Origin: an uncultured Planctomycetia bacterium | GTDB taxonomy: Bacteria; Omnitrophota; Gorgyraeia; Duberdicusellales; 4484-171 | Assembly (NCBI GenBank): GCA_964536865.1 | Contig: CAZHYN010000011.1 | Location: forward strand, 15,248 to 47,247 | DNA: 32,000 nt | Direction: 5' to 3' | Part shown: one piece after another, positions 14,073 through 32,000 of the stretch | How positions within the stretch are numbered: position 1 is the first letter of the stretch | How the letters are laid out: each line of letters opens with the position of its first letter | Made by a program: the position numbers and the translations under genes | The notes under the pieces: model-generated | Database searches by the model: none | Told to the model about the DNA's origin: nothing | Seen by the model: only the letters and a program-made list of their open reading frames with translations

Positions 14073-14150
14073 GGCCCCATCGTCTAGCCCGGTTAAGGAT
14101 ACGTGGTTCTCAGCCACGAGGCACGGGTTCAAATCCCGTTGGGGCTGCCA
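14073..14150 (+). tRNA. tRNA-Glu (anticodon CUC), CCA encoded
   Basis: Manual cloverleaf: acceptor GGCCCCA/TGGGGCT (G1-U72), D stem GTCT/GGAT, anticodon stem CGTGG/CCACG with loop TTCTCAG, T arm ACGGG-TTCAAAT-CCCGT, discriminator G, then CCA. A T-run follows. Confidence 0.9.
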
Positions 14151-14276
14151 CTTTTTTATCTTTCTAAAAATTTCCTCTTCTATTTTTTAACCCAGAGAAG
14201 GTCTTTTCAGTATTTTTCTCTGAGTGAAGACTTGAAAATTGCATATTTATATGTTATATCTCAACTGCTGAGCAAG

Positions 14277-14561
14277 ATGGAGGATAGAGGGAATAAGAAA
14301 GTTAAAATATGCAAAATATGCAATGAGGAATTTATTCCTGACAAATTTCATCCTTATCAGGAAGTTTGTTCAAAGCCCCAATGCCAAAAGGTAAGGCAAT
14401 TAGAAAATCAAAAGAGATGGCGACTTAAAAATCCTGATTATTTTAAATACAAGAGTAAAAAAACTCCTTGGGAGAGAAGACGTTGGGAATACCTTAAGAG
14501 GTGGAGAGAAACCCATAAGGACTATTTTAAATTGTATAGAAGAAAGAAAAAATTAAGTTAG
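14277..14561 (+). CDS. Orphan zinc-ribbon protein with a Trp/Arg/Lys-rich repeated tail (94 aa)
   Basis: CKICNEEF...CSKPQC (CxxC...CxxxxC), then two similar segments QKRWRLKNPDYFKY and LKRWRETHKDYFKL. The SD is weak. Residues upstream in the track ORF overlap tRNA-Glu and are not coding. Confidence 0.5.
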   Translation: MEDRGNKKVKICKICNEEFIPDKFHPYQEVCSKPQCQKVRQLENQKRWRLKNPDYFKYKSKKTPWERRRWEYLKRWRETHKDYFKLYRRKKKLS

Positions 14562-14623
14562 AGAGAAACGGAAGTTAAATCTAAAGTATCATATCTAGAA
14601 CCTCCTAAGGAAAAGTAGACAAG

Positions 14624-14653
14624 ACTCCTTAATATACGAGGAGTTTAAATATT
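14624..14653 (+). terminator. Weak candidate intrinsic terminator (ACTCCTT-aatatac-GAGGAGT then TTAAATATT)
   Basis: 7-bp stem including one G-U pair and a 7-nt loop. The trailing tract is A/T-rich rather than a clean U-run. Confidence 0.25.
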
Positions 14654-14845
14654 GGAAAGAAAATTCTCTGTAATTAGCTATCTATTTCTCTATAATTTCT
14701 TTGAGAACCTAATTCCTCGAGGCTGAAAATTTTGCTCAAGAGTTCCCTTATCTTCATTATCTTCTCATCAATATAAAATTAAGAAGTAACAAAAATAATA
14801 AAAAGATAAATTCTGTTCTCTCATAGTTTAATTATAGGATATTTA

Positions 14846-14854
14846 TGGTATAAT
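14846..14854 (+). promoter_or_regulatory. Extended -10 element TGgTATAAT upstream of hisI, flanked by the inverted repeat ATAGGAT/ATCCTAT
   Basis: TATAAT at 14849-14854 with TG at 14846-14847. The dyad arms sit at 14834-14840 and 14853-14859. Lies 35 nt upstream of ATG 14889. Confidence 0.4.
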
Positions 14855-14888
14855 CCTATTATATAATGAGAACGTTGGGAGGTATAAT

Positions 14889-20060: not shown

Positions 20061-21956
20061 ATGTTTCCCACTTTAAAAATATACACTCACAAGGAAGAGA
20101 GTCTTTCCCAAATAGTAAATAAGATAGCAGAGCTTGGCTATCACAGAGTAGATGAAGTATTAGAAGAAGGAGACTTCTCCCTTAAAGGTGACATTCTGGA
20201 AATTTTTCCTGTAAATTTTAATTTTCCTGTAAGGATAGAGTGGGAGTTCGAAGTAATTAGAGAAATTTATAGTTTTGATAAGACTATTAATAAAAAGATA
20301 ATGGGATACAATTTCCTTATTCTTCTCCCTTATAGGAAAAAGAAACCAAAAAGATACTCAGAAGAAATGCCTTTAGATATTGTCTTAAAAATAAATAAAG
20401 GAGACTATGTAGTTCATACTCGCTATGGTATAGGTAAATTTTTAGGAACAAAGAGATTGGAAGTAAGAAGTAAGGAAGGATACTATTTTGAAATAGAGTA
20501 TGCTAATCAAGATAAGCTCTATGTATCGGTAGAAGAAGCTCACTTGATTCAAAAATACATAAGTTTTTCTCCTAAACCCCCCAAACTTTCTCGCCTTGGC
20601 TCAAGAGAGTGGCTTCGTACTAAAGAGAGAGTAGAGCAAGGGATAAGAAGTTACGCCTTAGAACTTTTAAGAATTCAAGCTCAACGGACACTATTGGGAG
20701 GATTTAAGTTTTCTCCTGATAGTGAATGGCAAAAGATTTTTGAAGAAAAGTTTCCTTACCAGGAAACAGAGGATCAGATTAAAGCTACTTACGAAGTAAA
20801 AAGAGATATGGAACAGAAGCAGTGTATGGATAGGTTAGTCTGTGGAGATACTGGCTACGGTAAGACCGAAGTGGCTATGCGGGCAGCATTTAAAGCAGTG
20901 ATGGATGGGAAGCAGGTAGCATTTTTAGTGCCTACTACTATTCTGGCATATCAGCACTATAAGAATTTAGTAAAGAGGGTAGAAGACTTCCCTGTGGTAG
21001 TAGAATTACTCTCTCGGTTTAGAACTAAGCATCAACAGGAGGAGGTTGTAAGAAGACTGAAGGAGGGTAAAATTGATATAGTGGTAGGAACACATCGACT
21101 TCTTTCTCAGGATGTAGAGTTTCATGATTTGGGGCTTCTTATTATTGATGAAGAACAGAGATTTGGAGTTAGAGCTAAGGAGAAATTAAAGAAGTTAAAA
21201 TTAGGAGTAGATGTCCTTACTTTAACCGCTACTCCTATTCCTCGTACCCTCTATATGGGACTTATAGGGATAAAGGAAATATCTTTGATAAGAACCCCTC
21301 CTAAAGAAAGATTGGCGGTAAGGACAAAAGTAGCAGAATTTTCTCCTCAACTTCTTAAAGAAACAATAACTAAAGAGGTAAACAGAGGAGGGAGTGTATT
21401 TTTTATCCATAACCGAATTCATACTTTAGATAGAATACTTAAGATTTTAAAGAGGGTTCTTCCCTCTCATATTAGGATAGGAGTGGTTCATGGAAAGATG
21501 CCTTCCTCTTCTATAGAAAAAGTAATGTTAGATTTTATTGAGAAAAGGATTGATTGTCTTCTTACTACGGCGATTGTAGAATCAGGCATAGATATTCCTC
21601 ATGCCAATACTATTATCGTTAACGATGCTCACACTTTTGGTTTAAGTGACTTACACCAGTTACGAGGGAGAGTAGGTAGGTTTAATATTCAAGCTTATGC
21701 TTATTTCTTGGTTCCAAAATTTTCTTCTATATCTAGTGAGGCTAAAAAAAGATTGAAGCTTTTAGAGGAGTTTTCTCATTTAGGTGCAGGTTTTGAGATC
21801 GCTATGAGTGATTTGGAGTTAAGAGGAGCGGGCAACCTCTTAGGTGTCCAACAACACGGGTTTGTTTGGATGATTGGGTTTGATCTTTACTGCCGTCTTC
21901 TTAAAAAAGAGATAGAATATTTAAAAGAAGCATTCAAGATTGAAATAGGAGGTTAA
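20061..21956 (+). CDS. mfd: Transcription-repair coupling factor, minimal form (631 aa)
   Basis: Short UvrB-like segment LGYHRVDEVLEEGDFSLKGDILEIFP...VRIEW...FD; RNAP-interaction (CarD/TRCF) motif GDYVVHTRYGIGKFLG...IEYANQDKLYV; SF2 motifs GDTGYGKTEVA, IIDEEQRFG, TATPIPRT, GRVGR; and GAGNLLGVQQHG. The protein ends about 15 aa after GFDLYCRLL. Confidence 0.85.
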   Translation: MFPTLKIYTHKEESLSQIVNKIAELGYHRVDEVLEEGDFSLKGDILEIFPVNFNFPVRIEWEFEVIREIYSFDKTINKKIMGYNFLILLPYRKKKPKRYSEEMPLDIVLKINKGDYVVHTRYGIGKFLGTKRLEVRSKEGYYFEIEYANQDKLYVSVEEAHLIQKYISFSPKPPKLSRLGSREWLRTKERVEQGIRSYALELLRIQAQRTLLGGFKFSPDSEWQKIFEEKFPYQETEDQIKATYEVKRDMEQKQCMDRLVCGDTGYGKTEVAMRAAFKAVMDGKQVAFLVPTTILAYQHYKNLVKRVEDFPVVVELLSRFRTKHQQEEVVRRLKEGKIDIVVGTHRLLSQDVEFHDLGLLIIDEEQRFGVRAKEKLKKLKLGVDVLTLTATPIPRTLYMGLIGIKEISLIRTPPKERLAVRTKVAEFSPQLLKETITKEVNRGGSVFFIHNRIHTLDRILKILKRVLPSHIRIGVVHGKMPSSSIEKVMLDFIEKRIDCLLTTAIVESGIDIPHANTIIVNDAHTFGLSDLHQLRGRVGRFNIQAYAYFLVPKFSSISSEAKKRLKLLEEFSHLGAGFEIAMSDLELRGAGNLLGVQQHGFVWMIGFDLYCRLLKKEIEYLKEAFKIEIGG

Positions 21957-24628: not shown

Positions 24629-25702
24629 ATGAAAAAAAATACAAGAAAGAAAAAAATATCTTCTACTTCTACAAAGAAAAAAAGGACAGTTACCCAGAGA
24701 GTAAAAACTCGAGTTAGGACCTTAAAGAGAAAGATCGAAAGGATTAGAAAGAGAAGAACCTCTTCCCTCTATAAGAAAAAAGAAAAATTACCCAAGTTAA
24801 AAACTCCTCTTCCTACCCCACAAGAAAGAATTAGCGCAGATAAGGAGAAAGTAGAAGTCTCTAAATTCGTGAGACTTAAAGAACCTCAACTTGTTTCTCA
24901 AGAGATAGGAGAAGTTAGTTTACCTCAAAAATATTACGATAATAGGATTACTCTCTTGCCCAGAGATCCTTGGTGGCTACATACCTATTGGGATATTAGT
25001 GAGACGAAAATTAGTGAAGTTGTTTCCTCTATACCTATATACGAGAGAGGAAATCTAAGATGGATTTTAAGAGTTTATGACGTTACAGGGGTAAAAGATT
25101 TTAGAGGAGACAATGCAAATTCTTTTTTTGATATCGATATTCATTTTGAGGCGGGTAACTGGTATATAAATGTAGATAGACCAGAAAGGGAGTGGTGTGT
25201 AGAGATTGGATTTAAGAATCCTTATGGTAAGTTTTTCCCTTTAGTGCGTTCAAATATAATTAAAACTCCTTGCTTTGGGGTTTCTAGCATGGTAGATGAG
25301 GAATGGATTCTGGGCGAGGAGGATTATTATAAGATTTTGGGGATTTATGACTTAGGTAAAAGTTCTCTAGAGAGACGAAGGAAGTTAGAAGAGATTATAA
25401 AATACCAGATTTCTAGTGGAGCATTTTCTGGAGGGATAAGCAGTCTCTTTTCTTTTGCGAAGAAGGAGGAGGCACGGAAATTTTTCTTAGAGGTATGGAC
25501 GGAGCTTATTATTTACGGAAGAACTCATCCTAAAGCTACAGTAGATGTAGAAAAGAGACGTGTTAACTTAAGAAGCGATGGAACATTCTCTTTAAGATAT
25601 GCCTTACCGGAAGGGAACTTTGAGTTTAAGATAGTGGCTACTTCGCCTGATAAAAAAGAGACAATAAAGCTTACCCCTACTATTAAGAGAGGTACAAAGT
25701 GA
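24629..25702 (+). CDS. DUF4912-family protein with a highly basic N-terminal extension
   Basis: Core block DNRITLLPRDPWWLHTYWDISE...LRVYDVTG...FDIDI is characteristic of DUF4912, a frequent neighbour of GH57 branching enzymes. By my count about 28 of the first 60 residues are K/R. Confidence 0.75.
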   Translation: MKKNTRKKKISSTSTKKKRTVTQRVKTRVRTLKRKIERIRKRRTSSLYKKKEKLPKLKTPLPTPQERISADKEKVEVSKFVRLKEPQLVSQEIGEVSLPQKYYDNRITLLPRDPWWLHTYWDISETKISEVVSSIPIYERGNLRWILRVYDVTGVKDFRGDNANSFFDIDIHFEAGNWYINVDRPEREWCVEIGFKNPYGKFFPLVRSNIIKTPCFGVSSMVDEEWILGEEDYYKILGIYDLGKSSLERRRKLEEIIKYQISSGAFSGGISSLFSFAKKEEARKFFLEVWTELIIYGRTHPKATVDVEKRRVNLRSDGTFSLRYALPEGNFEFKIVATSPDKKETIKLTPTIKRGTK

Positions 25703-25703
25703 T

Positions 25704-27284
25704 ATGGAGAAAGGATATTTGGCGCTAATCTTACATGCCCACCTTCCTTTTGTACGTCATCCAGAGTATGAAGAGTTTTTAGAGGAACGTTGGTTTTTTG
25801 AAGCATTGACTGAGACTTATATTCCTCTCTTAGAGATTTTCGAGAGGCTGGATAATGACAGAGTAGATTTTTCTCTCACCCTTAATCTTTCGCCTACTCT
25901 ATGTAGTATGATGGACGACCAACTTCTTAAGGAAAGGTATGTTAGATACTTAGATAAAATGATCGAACTCTGTGAGAAAGAGATAGAGCGTACAAGATTT
26001 TCTCCTTCTTTCCATAAGTTGGCACTGATGTATTATTATCGCTTCAGAAGAACAAAAGATAAATTCTGCTACCATTACAATCAGAATCTTTTGAGAGAAT
26101 TCAAAAAATACCAGGACAAAGGATTTTTGGAGATAATAACCTGTGCAGGTACGCATGGTTTTTTACCTCTTCTTATAAGTAAAGAGGCAATAAAAGCGCA
26201 AATTCAGGTAGGAGTAAGTTCTTATATTAAATACTTTTCTTCCCATCCTAAGGGGATGTGGCTTCCCGAATGTGGTTACTTTGAGGGATTAGATAAGTTT
26301 CTAAAAGATGTGGGGTTGAAGTATTTTATCTTAGAGACTCACGGAGTACTTTTTTCTAGGCCACGTCCTAAGTTTGGAGTTTATTCCTCTTATTATACCA
26401 AGAGAAGGATAGCAGTCTTTGGTAGAGATCCTGAGTCTTCTAAGAGCGTTTGGTCTTCAATCGAAGGCTATCCTGGAGATTACAATTATCGGGAGTACTA
26501 TCGAGATATTGGCTTTGATTTAGATTATGATTATATAAAGCCTTATATATCCCCCTCTGGAGCAAGAATATTTACAGGGATAAAGTATTATAAGATCACC
26601 GGTCCTACCCCTTATAAACAACCTTACCTCCCTGAGGAGGCAAAGAAGAAAGCTGCTGAGCATGCAGGAAACTTTATGTTTAATAGAGAGAAGCAAGCAG
26701 AGTATCTTTTCGGAGTATTAAGGAGAAAGCCTATTATAGTAGCTCCTTATGATGCAGAATTGTTTGGTCACTGGTGGTTTGAGGGAATAGATTGGCTCGA
26801 GTTTCTAATAAGAAAGATAAGATATGATCAGGAGAATATAAAACTTATTACTCCCTCCCGTTACCTTAAACTCTATCCTAAAAATCAAGTGATAAATCCT
26901 GCTCCCTCCAGCTGGGGATGGAAGGGTTACTATGAGGTTTGGCTCAATGGTTCAAATGATTGGATTTATCCTCACCTTCATCGTGCTCAAGAAGCAATGG
27001 TCAAGTTAGCTAATAGGTATAAAAATAGTGATGGCCTAAAGAGACGGATTCTTAATCAGATGGCTAGGGAAGTTCTCTTAGCCCAGTCTAGTGATTGGGC
27101 ATTTATGATGAAAACAAACACTTTTAGTGAGTATGCTAGAAAAAGGATAGTTGTCCATCTTGAGCGTTTTCATCTCTTAAAAAATTATTTAGAAAAAAAC
27201 TTCTATAATTTTGAAGTCCTTGAGGATATAGAGAGAAAAGATAACCTCTTTCCCGATATAGAATTTTCCATATTCCAATCCTGA
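25704..27284 (+). CDS. GH57-family 1,4-alpha-glucan branching enzyme (DUF1957 type)
   Basis: GYLALILHAHLPFVRHPE, GMWLPECGYF (nucleophile region), APYDAELFGHWWFEG (acid/base region), QSSDWAFMM. Confidence 0.85.
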   Translation: MEKGYLALILHAHLPFVRHPEYEEFLEERWFFEALTETYIPLLEIFERLDNDRVDFSLTLNLSPTLCSMMDDQLLKERYVRYLDKMIELCEKEIERTRFSPSFHKLALMYYYRFRRTKDKFCYHYNQNLLREFKKYQDKGFLEIITCAGTHGFLPLLISKEAIKAQIQVGVSSYIKYFSSHPKGMWLPECGYFEGLDKFLKDVGLKYFILETHGVLFSRPRPKFGVYSSYYTKRRIAVFGRDPESSKSVWSSIEGYPGDYNYREYYRDIGFDLDYDYIKPYISPSGARIFTGIKYYKITGPTPYKQPYLPEEAKKKAAEHAGNFMFNREKQAEYLFGVLRRKPIIVAPYDAELFGHWWFEGIDWLEFLIRKIRYDQENIKLITPSRYLKLYPKNQVINPAPSSWGWKGYYEVWLNGSNDWIYPHLHRAQEAMVKLANRYKNSDGLKRRILNQMAREVLLAQSSDWAFMMKTNTFSEYARKRIVVHLERFHLLKNYLEKNFYNFEVLEDIERKDNLFPDIEFSIFQS

Positions 27285-27286
27285 AG

Positions 27287-28849
27287 ATGAAAACTCCTAC
27301 GGAAGTTCTATTCTTATGGCATATGCACCAGCCTTTCTATAAGCTTCCCTTCCATCGGGATTATTACTTAGGATGGGTACGTTTACATTGTGTGAAGGAT
27401 TACTATTCTATGGTAAAGATGCTCTATAAATTTGATAAAGTAAAGGTAACTTTTAACTTTAGTGGTGCACTTTTGGCTCAAATACTCGACTACGCTCATA
27501 ATAAGGCTAAGGATTACTATCTTACCCTTACTCTAAAGGATCCTAAGAGTTTAACCAAGAGAGAAAGAGAATTTATTCTGGATAGATTTTTCTCCGTAAA
27601 CTTTGAAAGAATAATAAAACCTCACAGACGCTATCTTCAACTTTATCAGAAGAAGATTTCTAAGAGGAAATTTTTACCTCAAGATATATTAGACTTGCAA
27701 GTTCTTTTTAACTTAGCGTGGTTTTCACCATATAGTTTCAAAGAGGACAAAGGTCTAAGGGAACTGAAGAAAAAAGAAAAAAATTATACTCAAATAGATA
27801 AACGTTATATCATAGAGAAGCAATATCAAATAATATCTGTTACTTTACCTCTCTATAATCGGCTACTTAGAGACAAAAGGATTGAAATTTCTGTTTCTCC
27901 TTTTTACCATCCTATTCTTCCCTTAGTATATGATACCGAAATCCTAAAAGAATTCCCTCACCTTAAAAAACCTGTTTTGAGATTTTCTCATCCTGAGGAT
28001 TGTCGGTATCAGCTTCGTCGTTCCAAAGAAATCTTTAAAAAAATTTTTAAGAAAGAAGTGGAGGGGAGTTGGCCTTCCGAAGGTAGTATTTCTGAAGAGG
28101 TAGTAAATATATATAAAGAGGAAGACTTTAGTTGGATTGCTTTAGATGAAGGAATTCTTTTTAAGAGTTTAACTACCGAGTACGTATCCTACGATTTGAT
28201 AAAAAATCAGAGACATCTTATCTATAAACCCTATCAGTTCTCTGGTGTAAATATCTTCTTTAGGGATAGGAACTTATCCGATGCTATAAGTTTTATCTAT
28301 CAAGGATGGGAGGATCCAGTTTTTGCGGGTTATGACTTATTAGAGCATTTCAAGCGAATTCACTATTATACCCAAGGGATGTTAAAGAACCGAGTAATTA
28401 CTATCACAATGGATGGAGAGAACGCTTGGGAGTACTATCCTAACAACGGAGTGGATTTTTTAGAGACTGTATACTCTGCGCTAGAGAAGAGTCACATTCT
28501 TACTACTACCTTACCCAGCGAGTTTCTTAAGAAGGTGTATCCTAAAAGGTTGGAGAGGCTTAGCCCGGGATCATGGATCAACGCGGATTTTGGAGTTTGG
28601 GTTGGTTCTAAGGAGAATAATCTGAATTGGTACATTCTAAGAAGAGTGAGGGATTTAATAGAGAAAAGTAAAGACAAAGTTAAGAATCCTGATAAACTAA
28701 GAGAATACTTTTATATTCTAGAAAGTAGCGATTGGAATTGGTGGAATACTTTTCGTGAGCCAACAGGAGATTTTAAAAAGTTGTTTACTTCCTATGTTAA
28801 GGAGATTTTTCGAATGTTAAAGAAGAAGCCTCCCAGCTACATTAAGTAA
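27287..28849 (+). CDS. GH57-family glycoside hydrolase (second paralogue; specificity unknown)
   Basis: LWHMHQPFYK, SPFYHPILPL, GSWPSEGSISEE, ITMDGENAWEYY, ESSDWNWW. Confidence 0.82.
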   Translation: MKTPTEVLFLWHMHQPFYKLPFHRDYYLGWVRLHCVKDYYSMVKMLYKFDKVKVTFNFSGALLAQILDYAHNKAKDYYLTLTLKDPKSLTKREREFILDRFFSVNFERIIKPHRRYLQLYQKKISKRKFLPQDILDLQVLFNLAWFSPYSFKEDKGLRELKKKEKNYTQIDKRYIIEKQYQIISVTLPLYNRLLRDKRIEISVSPFYHPILPLVYDTEILKEFPHLKKPVLRFSHPEDCRYQLRRSKEIFKKIFKKEVEGSWPSEGSISEEVVNIYKEEDFSWIALDEGILFKSLTTEYVSYDLIKNQRHLIYKPYQFSGVNIFFRDRNLSDAISFIYQGWEDPVFAGYDLLEHFKRIHYYTQGMLKNRVITITMDGENAWEYYPNNGVDFLETVYSALEKSHILTTTLPSEFLKKVYPKRLERLSPGSWINADFGVWVGSKENNLNWYILRRVRDLIEKSKDKVKNPDKLREYFYILESSDWNWWNTFREPTGDFKKLFTSYVKEIFRMLKKKPPSYIK

Positions 28850-28850
28850 A

Positions 28851-30884
28851 ATGGGTAAGACTTACTTTCTCTTTGGTGTACATAATCATCAGCCCGTAGG
28901 TAACTTTCCTCACATCTTTGAAGAAGCTTATCAGAAATGTTATCTTCCCTTCCTTACTCTCTTGGAGGCCTATCCTAAAGTAAAATGTAATTTTCATATA
29001 AGTGGACCTCTCTATGATTGGATCTTGGATAATCACAGAGAGTATATTTCTAAGCTAAGGATGTTGGTAGATAGAGGGCAAATAGAGATCATAAGTGGGG
29101 CTTACTATGAACCTATTCTTCCTTTGATAGCTGACGAAGATAAACTCTCTCAGATAAAATTTATGAATGGATTTATTAAAGAGAAGTTTTCTGTTACTCC
29201 TAAGGGGATTTGGGTAGCAGAAAGGGTTTGGGAACCTTATTTGGCACGAATAATAAATTTGGCTAATCTAAAGTATACCTTTTTGGACGATACGCATTTT
29301 CGTTACGCAGGTTTAAGTCGGAAAGAATTTACAGGGTATTATCTCACGGAAGATAACTATCTCCCTATTTATATTTTTCCCATAAGCAAGTCTTTAAGGT
29401 ATAAGATTCCCTTCTCTCTAGCAGATGAAGCTATAGATCTTCTTAAGAGTTTTTCAGCAAGAGGGGATATTCTTGTGACTCTCTTCGACGACGGAGAAAA
29501 GTTTGGCCTGTGGCCTTATACCTTTGATTGGGTTTATGGTAAAGAATGGCTTAGACAGTTCTTTGAGTTACTTACACAAAGCATAGACAAGATAGAGACT
29601 ATCACAGCCTCTGAAGCTTTAGAGCAGTTTCAACCCCAAGAGATAGTTTACTTACCTTGTGCCTCCTATCAAGAGATGGGAGAATGGGTCCTTGAACCAG
29701 AAACTTTCTCCATCTATCAAGATTTACAGAATTTCCTTAAGAAATCGCCTCATCATCAGGCGTTTCATAATTTCGTAAGGGGAGGATTTTTTAGAAATTT
29801 TTATACTAAGTATCCTCGTCTGAATTATATGCATAAACGGATGCTTTCCTTGAGCAAGAAAATTAATGTTCACACAACTCCTGAGAAAAATAAGAGAGTT
29901 TTCTGTTTCTTATGGAAGGCTCAGTGTAACTGTGCCTATTGGCATGGTATCTTTGGAGGATTTTATCTTCCTCATATAAGAGATGCCGTTTATTATAATC
30001 TAATAAAGGCTGAAGAAGAATTTGATAAAAAGTATGTTAAGGTTCCTTTGATTGCAGAGGAAATGGATATAGATTTAGATGGTAATCAAGAAATAATTCT
30101 AAAGAATAGAGAATTAACTTGTATATTTACCTCTAGAGGAGGGAGTTTGATAGAATTGAGTATGCGTAGCAAAGGATTCAATTTATTGAATACTATAACT
30201 AGGAGAGAGGAATCGTACCATAGCAAAATTAAAGAAAAGAGTTTTTCTTTACCAAAACGCACTGCTACTATCCATGACATTATTCAAAGTAAAGAGAAAG
30301 ATTTGGAGAGCTATTTGATTTATGATAGCTATGAAAAAGTAGGATTGGTAGATCACATATTATCTAATGATATAGATATCAGGAATTTTAAGAAAGGAAA
30401 AGGATTTACTACCTTAGGGAATCAGCTCTATGATCTCAACGTTAAGAAGAGGGAGGAGAAGATAGATATTTGTTTTTCTTCTCCCGATAAGAAATTTACG
30501 AAAATAGTTTCTTTTAGTAAGGAAAGTGAATTTTTAGTTATCTACGAGTTTAAAGACGATCGCTTATGGAGGAATAATCTTTTAGGAGTAGAGTGGAATC
30601 TATTTTTTCCTTCATGGCAAGATATAAAGATTAACGGTCAAGAATTTAATTTGGGAGAGATAGGATTGACAGAAAAAACTTCTTTATTGATTTCTGATTT
30701 TTACAAAAGAATAACAGTTGAATTTACGTTTGATAAGGCGGATTTATTTATTCTCCCGGTTTATTCGGTTTCCTCTTCCGAGTCAGGATTTGAGAAGGTT
30801 TTTCAGCAATTATGCCTTCTATTTATTAGAAAGATAGAAAATGATAGATTTCACTTGGCTTGTTTTCTAAAAAAGGAGGAATAA
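28851..30884 (+). CDS. GH57-family 4-alpha-glucanotransferase/alpha-amylase-like enzyme with a C-terminal beta-sandwich extension
   Basis: FGVHNHQPVGNF, GAYYEPILPL, GIWVAERVWEP (nucleophile Glu), TLFDDGEKFG (catalytic Asp). At 677 aa it resembles Thermococcus-type 4-alpha-glucanotransferases. Confidence 0.85.
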   Translation: MGKTYFLFGVHNHQPVGNFPHIFEEAYQKCYLPFLTLLEAYPKVKCNFHISGPLYDWILDNHREYISKLRMLVDRGQIEIISGAYYEPILPLIADEDKLSQIKFMNGFIKEKFSVTPKGIWVAERVWEPYLARIINLANLKYTFLDDTHFRYAGLSRKEFTGYYLTEDNYLPIYIFPISKSLRYKIPFSLADEAIDLLKSFSARGDILVTLFDDGEKFGLWPYTFDWVYGKEWLRQFFELLTQSIDKIETITASEALEQFQPQEIVYLPCASYQEMGEWVLEPETFSIYQDLQNFLKKSPHHQAFHNFVRGGFFRNFYTKYPRLNYMHKRMLSLSKKINVHTTPEKNKRVFCFLWKAQCNCAYWHGIFGGFYLPHIRDAVYYNLIKAEEEFDKKYVKVPLIAEEMDIDLDGNQEIILKNRELTCIFTSRGGSLIELSMRSKGFNLLNTITRREESYHSKIKEKSFSLPKRTATIHDIIQSKEKDLESYLIYDSYEKVGLVDHILSNDIDIRNFKKGKGFTTLGNQLYDLNVKKREEKIDICFSSPDKKFTKIVSFSKESEFLVIYEFKDDRLWRNNLLGVEWNLFFPSWQDIKINGQEFNLGEIGLTEKTSLLISDFYKRITVEFTFDKADLFILPVYSVSSSESGFEKVFQQLCLLFIRKIENDRFHLACFLKKEE

Positions 30885-31110: not shown

Positions 31111-31183
31111 GAAGCTATTTTTCAAGATAAGGAAGATAGTGTATAATTTTATATTGAGAAAGGGTAAGTAACAAGGAGGAGGG

Positions 31184-31387
31184 ATGAGAAAAGATTATCC
31201 ATTGGGAGGGGATATTTTTCTTGCTACTGCTTTTGTGCTGTTTGTATCTGCTATCTTTTTTCGTCTTCTAGGGATATTTCATCTATTCTTAGGCATCACT
31301 ATATATGGGTTTCTGAGAGTTGCAGAAATGTGTTTACTTTTTAGTATCGCCATAAGTTTAGTAGATATCAGCCGTAAGATTAAATAG
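31184..31387 (+). CDS. Hypothetical small two-TM membrane protein (67 aa)
   Basis: Two hydrophobic helices. Strong SD AAGGAGGAGGG immediately upstream of the ATG. Confidence 0.55.
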   Translation: MRKDYPLGGDIFLATAFVLFVSAIFFRLLGIFHLFLGITIYGFLRVAEMCLLFSIAISLVDISRKIK

Positions 31388-31421
31388 GTTCAATTTCATT
31401 CCTCAAATTATCTTTCCTTGA

Positions 31422-31513
31422 GGAGGGGTGCGAGAGTTTGGCTTAATCGGCACGACTGGAAATCGTGTATCCTGCCAAAAGCGGGATCGAGGGTTCAAAT
31501 CCCTCCCCCTCCG
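31422..31513 (+). tRNA. tRNA-Ser (anticodon GGA), class II with long variable arm, CCA not encoded
   Basis: Manual cloverleaf: acceptor GGAGGGG/CCCCTCC, D stem CGA/TCG, anticodon stem CACGA/TCGTG with loop CTGGAAA, variable arm ATCCTGC-CAAAA-GCGGGAT, T arm GAGGG-TTCAAAT-CCCTC, discriminator G. Confidence 0.92.
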
Positions 31514-32000
31514 GTTATACTTAGAATTAGAAAACTCTCAGGTTAAATAAAGGAGGGCTGAGATTAGATTGATAAGCTATTTTGGACCCAACAAGAAAAA
31601 GACTCCGACTTCGTGGGAGGTTGGGTTCAAATCTCTATTCCATTGGTTATATTTAAAATTAAAAAGCTTTCAGATTAAATAGATGATGGTAGATATTAGA
31701 TTGCTAAGCTATTTTGGACCCAACAAGAAAAAGACTCCGACTTCGTGGGAGGTTGGGTTCAAATCTCTATTCCATTGGTTATATTTAAAATTAAAAAGCT
31801 TTCAGATTAAATAGATGATGGTAGATATTAGATTGCTAAGCTATTTTGGACCCAACAAAAAAAGACTCCGACTTCGTCGGAGGTTGGGTTCAAATCTCTA
31901 TTCCCTTGGTTATATTTAAAATTAAAAAGCTTTCAGGTTAAATGGATGATAGTAGATATTAAATTGTTAAACTATTTTGGACCCAACAAAAAAAGACTCC
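31514..32000 (+). repeat. Tandem array (at least 3.7 copies, truncated by the window end) of a 131-132-nt unit derived from the 3' part and 3' flank of tRNA-Ser
   Basis: Units at 31514-31645 (132 nt), 31646-31777 (132), 31778-31908 (131) and 31909-32000 (partial). Units 2 and 3 differ at 3 positions. Each unit ends in GGGTTCAAATCTCTATTCC(A/C)TTG, aligned with the tRNA end GGGTTCAAATCCCTCCCCCTCCG, and starts with GTTATATTTAAAATTAAAAAGCTTTCAGATTAAAT, aligned with the tRNA flank GTTATACTTAGAATTAGAAAACTCTCAGGTTAAAT. Confidence 0.9.

Follow-up and report, generated by a model that had tools for sequence, protein, structure and literature searches.

The stretch of DNA analysed here (the window; 32,000 nt of contig CAZHYN010000011.1, assembly GCA_964536865.1) is a bacterial chromosome segment of 35% GC in which all genes lie on the + strand and have housekeeping functions. 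They include TonB/ExbBD, Fur, Def, thioredoxins, TrpE, SecDF, an Mfd-like helicase, SurA, PdxA and KsgA, along with DUF4912, three GH57 glucan enzymes and DUF2934. Near the end of the window, an intact tRNA-Ser(GGA) gene (31422..31513, + strand; detected by ARAGORN and Rfam, 49.8 bits), in which CCA is not encoded, is followed directly by a tandem array of units of about 132 nt. Tandem Repeats Finder (TRF) reported a single array at 31513-32000 with a period of 132, 3.7 copies, 93% matches and a score of 815; since the array runs off the window end, its copy number in the window's own genome is at least 3.7. Our analysis of these units and their relatives indicates that the repeat unit is a discrete element without genes and not a decayed tRNA, and that it is probably either a new small insertion element or a tRNA-linked RNA.

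All four units lie on the + strand. Unit 1 (31514..31645) and unit 2 (31646..31777) are 132 nt long, unit 3 (31778..31908) is 131 nt long, and unit 4 (31909..32000) is cut by the window end. The motif GGTTAT recurs at 31513, 31645, 31777 and 31908, and GGGTTCAAATC occurs at 31491, inside the tRNA, and again at 31623, 31755 and 31886. The initial annotation had described a period of 132, 132 and 131 nt beginning directly after tRNA-Ser(GGA) and in phase with its 3' end, with GGTTAT at these positions; the TRF result and the motif positions bear this out. Units 2 and 3 do differ at 3 positions, as had been counted, units 1 and 2 differ at 13, and all four are distinct. Unit 1 carries a variable segment, AAAGGAGGGCTGAGATTAG, that is unlike that of the other units, and unit 2 has a segment which we call B-type. 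In an independent Logan assembly (L001), unit 1 was reproduced and the contig breaks at its end.

Each unit is made up of an AT-rich leader, a variable segment, a conserved two-part hairpin and a copy of the tRNA tail. Across all known copies the element measures roughly 130-145 nt and has no genes, and every copy begins directly 3' of the discriminator base of a class-II tRNA gene. The sequence copied at the unit ends is the last 23 nt of tRNA-Ser(GGA), GGGTTCAAATCCCTCCCCCTCCG. In unit 1 the corresponding block, GGGTTCAAATCTCTATTCCATTG, occupies 31623..31645 on the + strand (equivalents at 31755-31777 and 31886-31908) and consists of an 11-nt exact match followed by a T-enriched remainder; 21/33 positions are identical between tRNA end and unit end. 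The internal unit end TATTCCATTG may be either an acceptor strand decayed by C-to-T changes or a homologue of TATTCTTGTTGG, the leader found in the distant relative L012 described below. The copy of the tRNA's 3' flank, for which 28 of 35 matching positions had been given, matches at 29 of 35.

In shuffle tests against both tRNA-Ser genes, similarity to tRNA was significant only in the last ~23 nt of the unit, i.e. GGGTTCAAATC plus the 3' strand of the acceptor; the 5' part of the unit gave p values of 0.01-1.0 and the hairpin region 0.19-0.92. A profile of the whole unit matched the spacer-plus-tRNA region weakly (E 0.035). ARAGORN found no tRNA genes within the units and the Rfam tRNA model RF00005 had no match in them even at E<=10, which agrees with the earlier statement that the units are not functional tRNA genes. 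The acceptor-like pairing that had been noted between the 5' part and the 3' end was not significant when RNAduplex energies were compared with shuffles (p 0.03-0.67), and is not conserved in units of the A type. Nor did the variable segment pair significantly, against shuffles, with the tRNA-end copy upstream or downstream of it, although by eye such pairing had seemed promising in four unit types. The proposal of a decaying tRNA gene array therefore finds no support over most of the unit, neither the 5' part nor the supposed variable-arm hairpin being significantly tRNA-like. An 11-mer, AGATTAAATAG, had also been reported in every unit and at the stop of the upstream small open reading frame (ORF). 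It does occur near that stop, starting at 31377 and not 31376, and among the units it is present in units 2 and 3 only (31672 and 31804); being out of phase and absent from units 1 and 4, it was treated as chance.

In every live copy of the element the hairpin has two parts, an outer helix of 12 bp and an inner hairpin of 7 bp with a loop of 3-4 nt, and its 5' strand carries an unpaired linker between them. Pairing of UUUGGACCCAAC with GUUGGGUUCAAA forms the outer helix in the window family. The core of unit 1 (31581..31631, + strand) has TTTGGACCCAAC (31581-31592) paired with GTTGGGTTCAAA (31620-31631), the inner hairpin at 31603-31619 and, after the 5' strand of the outer helix, a 10-nt A-rich bulge. 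In unit 2 (31713..31763, + strand) 31713-31724 pairs with 31752-31763 around an inner hairpin at 31735-31751, and in unit 3 (31845..31894, + strand) 31845-31856 pairs with 31883-31894 around 31866-31882. Units differ in the length of the A-rich linker (8, 9 or 10 nt), which is shorter by 1 nt in unit 3. The inner hairpin CTCCGAC-TTC-GT(G/C)GGAG, first recognised in the initial annotation, was found at 31603, 31735 and 31866, with a central G.G mismatch in units 1 and 2 and perfect pairing in unit 3. The sequence that had been described as T-loop-like is the 3' strand of the conserved 12-bp helix and not a T arm. Minimum free energies (MFE) were -33.3 kcal/mol for unit 3 (z -3.6) and -25.5 kcal/mol for the 59-nt core (z -5.9). 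The element has this single conserved hairpin, near its right end, and the folds of the left half differ between unit types. Covariance model R1 scored units 1, 2 and 3 at 89.6, 89.6 and 92.2 bits, and gave a 3'-truncated match of 26.1 bits to unit 4.

Covariation was assessed in an alignment of the window family with the two copies of L012; the evidence base comprises about a dozen copies from two lineages. In this alignment 97.9% of cells were paired, and both partners had changed in 9 of the 19 pairs (12 + 7 bp). This level was not attained by any of 500 shuffles, slid controls were 21-55% paired, and RNAalifold, run unaided, returned the identical two-part structure. The first pair covaries with the T-loop base derived from the target, U-A accompanying CAAA and C-G accompanying CAAG, and one position is invariably G.U or G.A. 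The + strand, on which the tRNA also lies, is favoured by the G.U pairs, and its fold is more stable than that of the minus strand by 4-8 kcal/mol in the window family. Between the window species and its sister species, the 61-nt core is 95.5% identical over all inter-species unit pairs, as compared to 67-78% at third codon positions, 79-86% in intergenic DNA and 96.7% in the tRNA-Ser(GGA) gene itself. We infer that the hairpin is the part of the element under selection.

On the minus strand, unit 3 has a site resembling an intrinsic terminator (31856..31882), in which CTCCGAC-GAA-GTCGGAG is followed by TCTTTTTTTG; units 1 and 2 have the same motif with a stem mismatch. In the sister species a convergent permease gene lies 3' of the array at the equivalent locus and faces this minus-strand hairpin. 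The window-family units thus resemble bidirectional intrinsic terminators in having a GC-rich 7-bp hairpin and a minus-strand U run. In L012, by contrast, the hairpin and the extra 12-bp outer helix are conserved with no U tract on either strand, so that termination is not the conserved role of the hairpin, and at the second locus described below the next gene is co-oriented. A mere terminator was therefore rejected, the U tract being specific to one lineage.

When GTDB genomes were scanned by pattern, the unit turned up in a single metagenome-assembled genome (MAG), Candidatus Omnitrophota bacterium B7_G16 (Guaymas), where two contigs carry it and both break inside units. Further contigs were found by a metagenome scan and by look-ups via neighbouring proteins. 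The genes of the sister species, a Candidatus Omnitrophota MAG, are 84-88% identical to those of the window at the DNA level. At its first locus, behind tRNA-Ser(GGA), contigs L007 and L002 hold two units (A + B) and L005 holds one, and in all three the array is flanked by unique DNA on both sides. The single unit of L005 is an A/B recombinant, and the units in general are mosaics of leader and variable-segment types that are common to both species. The suggestion of ongoing duplication or homogenisation is consistent with these mosaics and with copy numbers of 1, 2 or at least 3.7. At a second locus of the sister species (L010), two units lie between tRNA-Ser(CGA) and a CPBP protease gene; the last of them ends in a perfect 23-nt tRNA end, which is followed by a 40-nt partial unit. 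Contigs L003 and L010 show different unit ends at one site of this locus.

A distant relative, L012, encodes a CPBP protein that is 34% identical and has kept the synteny CPBP-M48-phosphoribosyltransferase (PRTase); on the basis of this protein similarity and synteny, it would belong to the Omnitrophota. Here tRNA-Ser(CGA) is followed by one 143-nt element that ends in a perfect 18-nt copy of its own lineage's tRNA end. The identity block from T-loop to 3' end is matched to the local target, with 18 nt perfect in L012, 23 nt perfect in L010 and 19/23 at the first locus. The L012 contig starts within a second copy, and this ends in a different, Leu-like tRNA end with A73. Since the gene order in relatives is tRNA-Leu(CAG), tRNA-Ser(CGA), CPBP, this second copy probably follows tRNA-Leu(CAG). 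Five relatives with the same synteny (L024, L015, L017, L019 and L011) lack the element behind these tRNAs. The initial annotation had proposed a search of related genomes, and among these relatives the unit occurs at further tRNA genes and, carrying compensatory changes, also in a distant lineage.

A covariance model of the core also retrieved a relic copy at L007 10606-10676 (equal to L005 2143-2213, minus strand). The relic lies distally, 12 nt beyond the terminal unit, without leader and variable segment. Its fold is lost, its score with model R1 is 22 bits where live copies reach 66-99 bits, and its tRNA-end copy, CAAATTCTTTCTCTTCCA, is six transitions away from the tRNA end.

Several minor observations were made at the second locus and in L012. 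Positions 107-138 of L012 (GGAGAGGTGGTCGAGCTTGGTT...), 84 nt upstream of tRNA-Ser(CGA), resemble the 5' end of a tRNA-Ser (acceptor strand and D arm) and may be the 5' tRNA fragment of another rearrangement. Between element and CPBP gene, an ORF of 82 aa with a GIY-YIG nuclease domain (L012 570-818; L013 107-355) overlaps the CPBP start; it is missing from the window lineage, and a connection with the element is possible. In L010 (381-430) and L003 (88-135), the unit leader and its ATGAGGATT have a homologue in the beginning of the CPBP gene (ATGAGATAT) together with the 40 nt that precede it. Either the native spacer between tRNA and CPBP would therefore have been copied into the element, or the reverse holds. 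The CPBP start in these two contigs is not preceded by a Shine-Dalgarno sequence.

The tRNA end that bounds the units also occurs in phages. Three AT-rich phage contigs from IMG/VR (L026 14580-14601, L027 2228-3378 and L030 13339-13360), with portal and tail genes nearby, carry a block of 27 nt that is identical to the tRNA-Ser(GGA) end, in the absence of a tRNA gene, ~50 nt upstream of a divergent tyrosine integrase. This integrase had no Pfam match and matched PHROG_1 at E 1.6e-5. Judged by sequence, the tRNA-Ser(GGA) end is a live att site, and the host of these phages could be the Omnitrophota lineage of the window. Repeats resembling GGGGAATTATGGGGGAA flank the tRNA-Ser fragment of the phages on both sides and may be arm sites.

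Identity that begins in the T-loop and continues to the 3' end is the footprint classically left by site-specific recombination at tRNA genes, and on this ground we read the unit as a non-autonomous integrative element without genes, for which the tRNA end serves as an att-like core and which forms arrays by recombination between cores. We would put the probability of this reading at about 45%. The target-matched ends, the empty sites, the polymorphic copy number, the recombinant units and the distal relic together point to insertion at a tRNA att site followed by core recombination. Arrays would then grow and shrink through recombination between the tRNA-end cores, either by integrase-mediated accretion and excision or by unequal crossing-over, and distal copies would decay. 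The hairpin would probably be a cis-acting site and, in the window lineage, also a terminator of convergent transcription. The comparisons show the anatomy and distribution of the element, its variation in copy number and the conservation of its hairpin; that it is mobile, which enzyme moves it and what the hairpin does are what we infer from them. The initial suggestion of a pile-up of att-like sites comes closest to this reading; what is repeated is, however, a discrete and structurally conserved element and not a bare scar.

A number of observations weigh against this reading. No integrase, transposase or other mobility gene was found in the window or beside any array; the genes flanking the arrays are all housekeeping genes, and the units have no conserved ORF. 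A full-length parent element was not found, and the att flanks of the phages have no similarity to the unit body. A circle of 130 nt would be an awkward substrate for recombination. At the junctions inside the arrays the tRNA end is degraded (CTCTATTCCATTG); used as attP with a crossover in the T-loop, such an end would break the tRNA. Homology with a Ser-type core cannot explain the origin of the copy behind the putative tRNA-Leu. The alleles with one and two units (L005 and L007) fit excision or integration, but unequal crossing-over could have yielded them. Compensatory changes in the hairpin, with G.U pairs favouring the + strand, are what is expected of a functional RNA, and with only two lineages and about a dozen copies, the high identity between species could equally reflect purifying selection on an RNA.

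These last points lead to the alternative that the element is a structured trailer RNA, in line with the read-through RNAs already proposed in the initial annotation. Its units would be co-transcribed with tRNA-Ser as a 3' trailer and the hairpin would work at the RNA level, perhaps as a module for stability or processing or as a small regulatory RNA, with the array multiplying the dose. As CCA is not encoded, release at the tRNA 3' end by RNase Z could be proposed, and the start of the unit is the exact cut expected of that enzyme. Besides the compensatory changes, the independent RNAalifold prediction, the G.U pairs on the + strand and the greater stability of the + fold, it is in favour of this proposal that the tRNA and the units are not separated by a terminator on the + strand, and that the core is as conserved between species as the tRNA-Ser gene. 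At the second locus, moreover, the units lie between the tRNA and a co-oriented gene that is only ~20 nt from the tRNA in relatives with an empty site, so that read-through is expected. An RNA would, however, leave unexplained the target-matched tRNA ends, the copies behind three tRNA genes and the empty sites in close relatives. Nor does any Rfam family match, the inner stem has a G.G mismatch in two of the four window units, and the acceptor-like pairing that tRNA-like processing at the unit 3' end would need is not significant. Judged from sequence and predicted folding, we regard a trailer RNA as the strongest rival, a doubtful though serious candidate. Of similar standing, and thus speculative, is the broader proposal that these copies represent an undescribed class of cassettes, gene-less and defined by a hairpin, which insert into the T-loop of class-II tRNA genes by site-specific recombination, or, equally novel, structured trailer RNAs released by RNase Z that have spread between tRNA genes. 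In the cassette version, the tRNA gene would be the docking site of an integron-like array, into which new cassettes enter proximally while old ones decay distally. Recognition would be through the cassette hairpin, in its folded form as RNA or single-stranded DNA, and since the cassette supplies its own copy of the tRNA tail, the tRNA would stay intact.

The remaining explanations all rank low. Neutral duplication of tRNA-Ser together with its spacer (92 + 40 = 132 nt), followed by decay and concerted evolution that keeps the copies alike, corresponds to the decaying tRNA gene array of the initial annotation and would imply neither function nor mobility. It accounts for the period, which equals tRNA plus spacer, for the C-to-T decay of unit ends, as expected at 35% GC, and for the weak profile match of the whole unit to the spacer-plus-tRNA region, and the second locus can be read as three copies of a 92-nt tRNA-like part and a 40-nt spacer, with the partial unit before the next gene. 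We nevertheless consider it improbable: neither the 5' two-thirds nor the 'variable-arm' hairpin has significant similarity to one of the two tRNA-Ser genes, the same architecture with compensatory changes recurs in a distant lineage where it is single-copy, and the core is conserved far above the neutral level whereas the true relic has decayed. The exact bounding of the insert at the first locus by a tRNA end on both sides is likewise not predicted. Slightly more improbable still is that the units are plain integration scars, i.e. attL/attR remnants with no identity of their own, left by repeated integration of islands or prophages at tRNA-Ser and subsequent deletion. Partial tRNA 3' fragments are a known footprint of such events (PMC9897764; bioRxiv 10.1101/2020.12.28.424599), and phages with an integrase and exactly this tRNA-Ser end exist. 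Independent deletions would not, however, have produced one ~130-nt architecture, including a compensated hairpin, at each of four loci of two distant lineages; between species the units agree at 95%, nothing in them resembles the att flanks of the phages, and the copies have no gene fragments between them.

Very little speaks for tandem genes for small proteins, in which each 132-nt unit would be one 43-codon ORF from ATG to TAG. The ORF at 31683-31814 does span exactly one unit, its stop abutting the next ATG, and gene callers annotated 43-aa ORFs in L007 and L010. The frame differs between copies, however, because the linker of 8, 9 or 10 nt changes the reading frame from one unit to the next; unit 3 is frameshifted, unit 1 has in-frame stops and the L012 copy has no ORF. 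A search with six-frame peptides of the units, concatenated, returned no protein family, and the coding reading is effectively refuted. Equally remote is an assembly artefact, in which the assembler would have written extra copies around a repeat cycle. It would fit with the window ending inside the array, with the break of the Logan contig at the end of unit 1 and with the two MAG contigs that break inside units, but all four window units are mutually different and arrays of one and two units are flanked by unique DNA in several independent assemblies.

If the unit is a non-autonomous integrative element, it can be compared with several known systems. CIMEs (cis-mobilisable elements), which take part in the accretion of ICEs (integrative and conjugative elements) and IMEs (integrative and mobilisable elements), are gene-less, att-bounded stretches of DNA that can stand in tandem at tRNA genes and are thought to be moved in trans by a related integrase; they are kilobases long and are decayed ICEs or IMEs. 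The present element is likewise gene-less, bounded by att-like sequence and stackable at a tRNA. It differs in being only ~130 nt long and in having a selected hairpin, and we know of no helper element for it. In integrons, attC sites are hairpins defined by structure, with variable sequence and preserved pairing, and cassettes enter beside a fixed site. Similarly, the hairpin of our element spans the unit junction and keeps its pairing, old units would be pushed distally, and the window family has boxes of the form RYYYAAC (ACCCAAC) and GTTRRRY (GTTGGGT). Unlike attC, the linker is one-sided (10 nt vs 0), there is no intI nearby and the consensus is missing in the L012 copies; also, the shared block is 18-23 nt of tRNA and not a 7-nt core. 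We did not retain an integron attC or cassette array as an explanation. The boundaries lie at the tRNA 3' end and not at G|TT, no recombinase gene was found at any locus, and in the window family the attC-like boxes ACCCAAC/GTTGGGT adjoin the inner hairpin and not the base, both L012 copies being without them.

Trailer RNAs at the 3' end of tRNA operons, such as 3'ETS-leuZ (3' external transcribed spacer) in E. coli, are co-transcribed and released by 3' processing. The element resembles them in being non-coding, directly 3' of a tRNA and probably co-transcribed. To our knowledge, the known trailers are single and lineage-specific, never tandem, and lack a terminal copy of the tRNA end, whereas this element is tandem and has one. 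Partial tRNA genes at attL/attR of tyrosine-integrase elements, with a T-loop sublocation, are described by Reiter 1989 and Williams 2002, as cited in PMC9897764, and tycheposons offer a further comparison for tRNA targeting (bioRxiv 10.1101/2020.12.28.424599). As in attL/attR, an intact tRNA on one side of our element is matched on the other by a copy of its 3' portion from the T-loop on, copies are stacked at one tRNA with the older ones distal and decayed, and relatives have empty sites. Unlike in tyrosine-integrase islands, the segment between copies is only ~110 nt, without integrase or cargo, and unlike in their scars, it is conserved, structured and present at several tRNAs in distant lineages. 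Partial tRNA copies are usually taken as scars of large elements; here a tiny, gene-less and selected unit lies between them. If mobile, the element would be the counterpart, in the world of integrases, of a MITE (miniature inverted-repeat transposable element), and would reveal the sequence and structure needs of a tRNA-targeting recombinase as well as offer a compact docking module. Should the element act as RNA, the Omnitrophota would have in it a new family of non-coding RNAs linked to tRNAs. This phylum consists of very small bacteria and is poorly known. In practice, short-read assemblies are interrupted at tRNA genes by arrays of this kind, in which gene callers also annotate 43-aa 'proteins'.

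Other candidate classes and database leads were examined and set aside. Among the curated RNA families of Rfam 15, only tRNAs reached the gathering score. A sub-threshold lead to RF02223 (sX4) is explained by tRNA-Ser itself, since the model contains a complete tRNA-Ser(CGA) together with its trailer, and its paper gives no function; RF04351 (Plastid-psbl-rps4), also below threshold, matches the antisense of tRNA-Ser. Such sX4 and Plastid-psbl-rps4 matches were seen at 31406-31563 of the window and at 180-316 and 227-278 of L012, and are found at tRNA-Ser genes in general. A protein search with the concatenated six-frame peptides of the unit scored no family. Two scans of viral contigs for the unit core gave 0 matches, as did a scan of viral contigs for the L012-type tRNA end, while the four matches of a generic hairpin pattern in viral contigs were due to chance, lying in coding regions or having the outer helix unpaired. 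A blastn search of the unit against phages and plasmids gave only AT-rich chance matches at E of about 0.1.

As regards structure, a MITE proper does not fit, because no terminal inverted repeat exceeded shuffles (p 0.6-0.96) and the duplicated block is 18-23 nt, nor does an element of the IS200/IS605 type, as there is no second subterminal hairpin. The repeats of type III toxin-antitoxin systems (ToxI-like) are 34-45 nt long and precede a toxin endoribonuclease gene, against a unit of 131-132 nt here, with a permease (first locus) or a CPBP protease (second locus) downstream. Primer-binding-site-like (PBS-like), guide-RNA-like (omega-RNA, homing crRNA) and split-tRNA explanations were also dismissed, there being no CCA complement and no associated genes, and the host being a bacterium.

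Upstream of the tRNA, a hydrophobic ORF of 67 aa (31184..31387, + strand) adjoins the gene and was used as the marker of the orthologous locus. Only two protein clusters among 5.8 billion sequences correspond to it, the window's own and an 87% identical one from the sister species. A promoter-like site, TTTTCA-17-TATAAT (31119..31147, + strand), stands 5' of this ORF with only 10/12 consensus matches, and, going by its position, may drive the ORF, tRNA-Ser and the array as a single transcript; no terminator-like site was found on the + strand between it and the array.

Elsewhere in the window, the region 14073-14888 holds a tRNA-Glu(CTC) gene in which CCA is encoded and followed by a T run; tRNA-Ser(GGA) has no CCA. 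No copy of the element was found behind this tRNA-Glu, the ~740 nt 3' of which are poorly coding and hold a small Cys-rich ORF (about 14278-14561). The Mfd-like ORF (20061-21956) is only 631 aa long, with equal length in the sister species. It has UvrB-interaction, CarD/TRCF RID and helicase domains, and no significant Pfam match in its C-terminal ~30 aa, where Mfd has its C-terminal domain. An 8-nt repeat, AGAGCACC, occurs four times in tandem at both 1293-1326 and 1744-1777, at the 3' ends of two neighbouring ORFs (ExbB-like and ExbD-like). Finally, at 24629-30884 the DUF4912 gene is followed by three GH57-family genes in a row (one branching-enzyme-like, one with GH57 only and one amylase/4-alpha-glucanotransferase-like), and this cluster is kept in the sister species.

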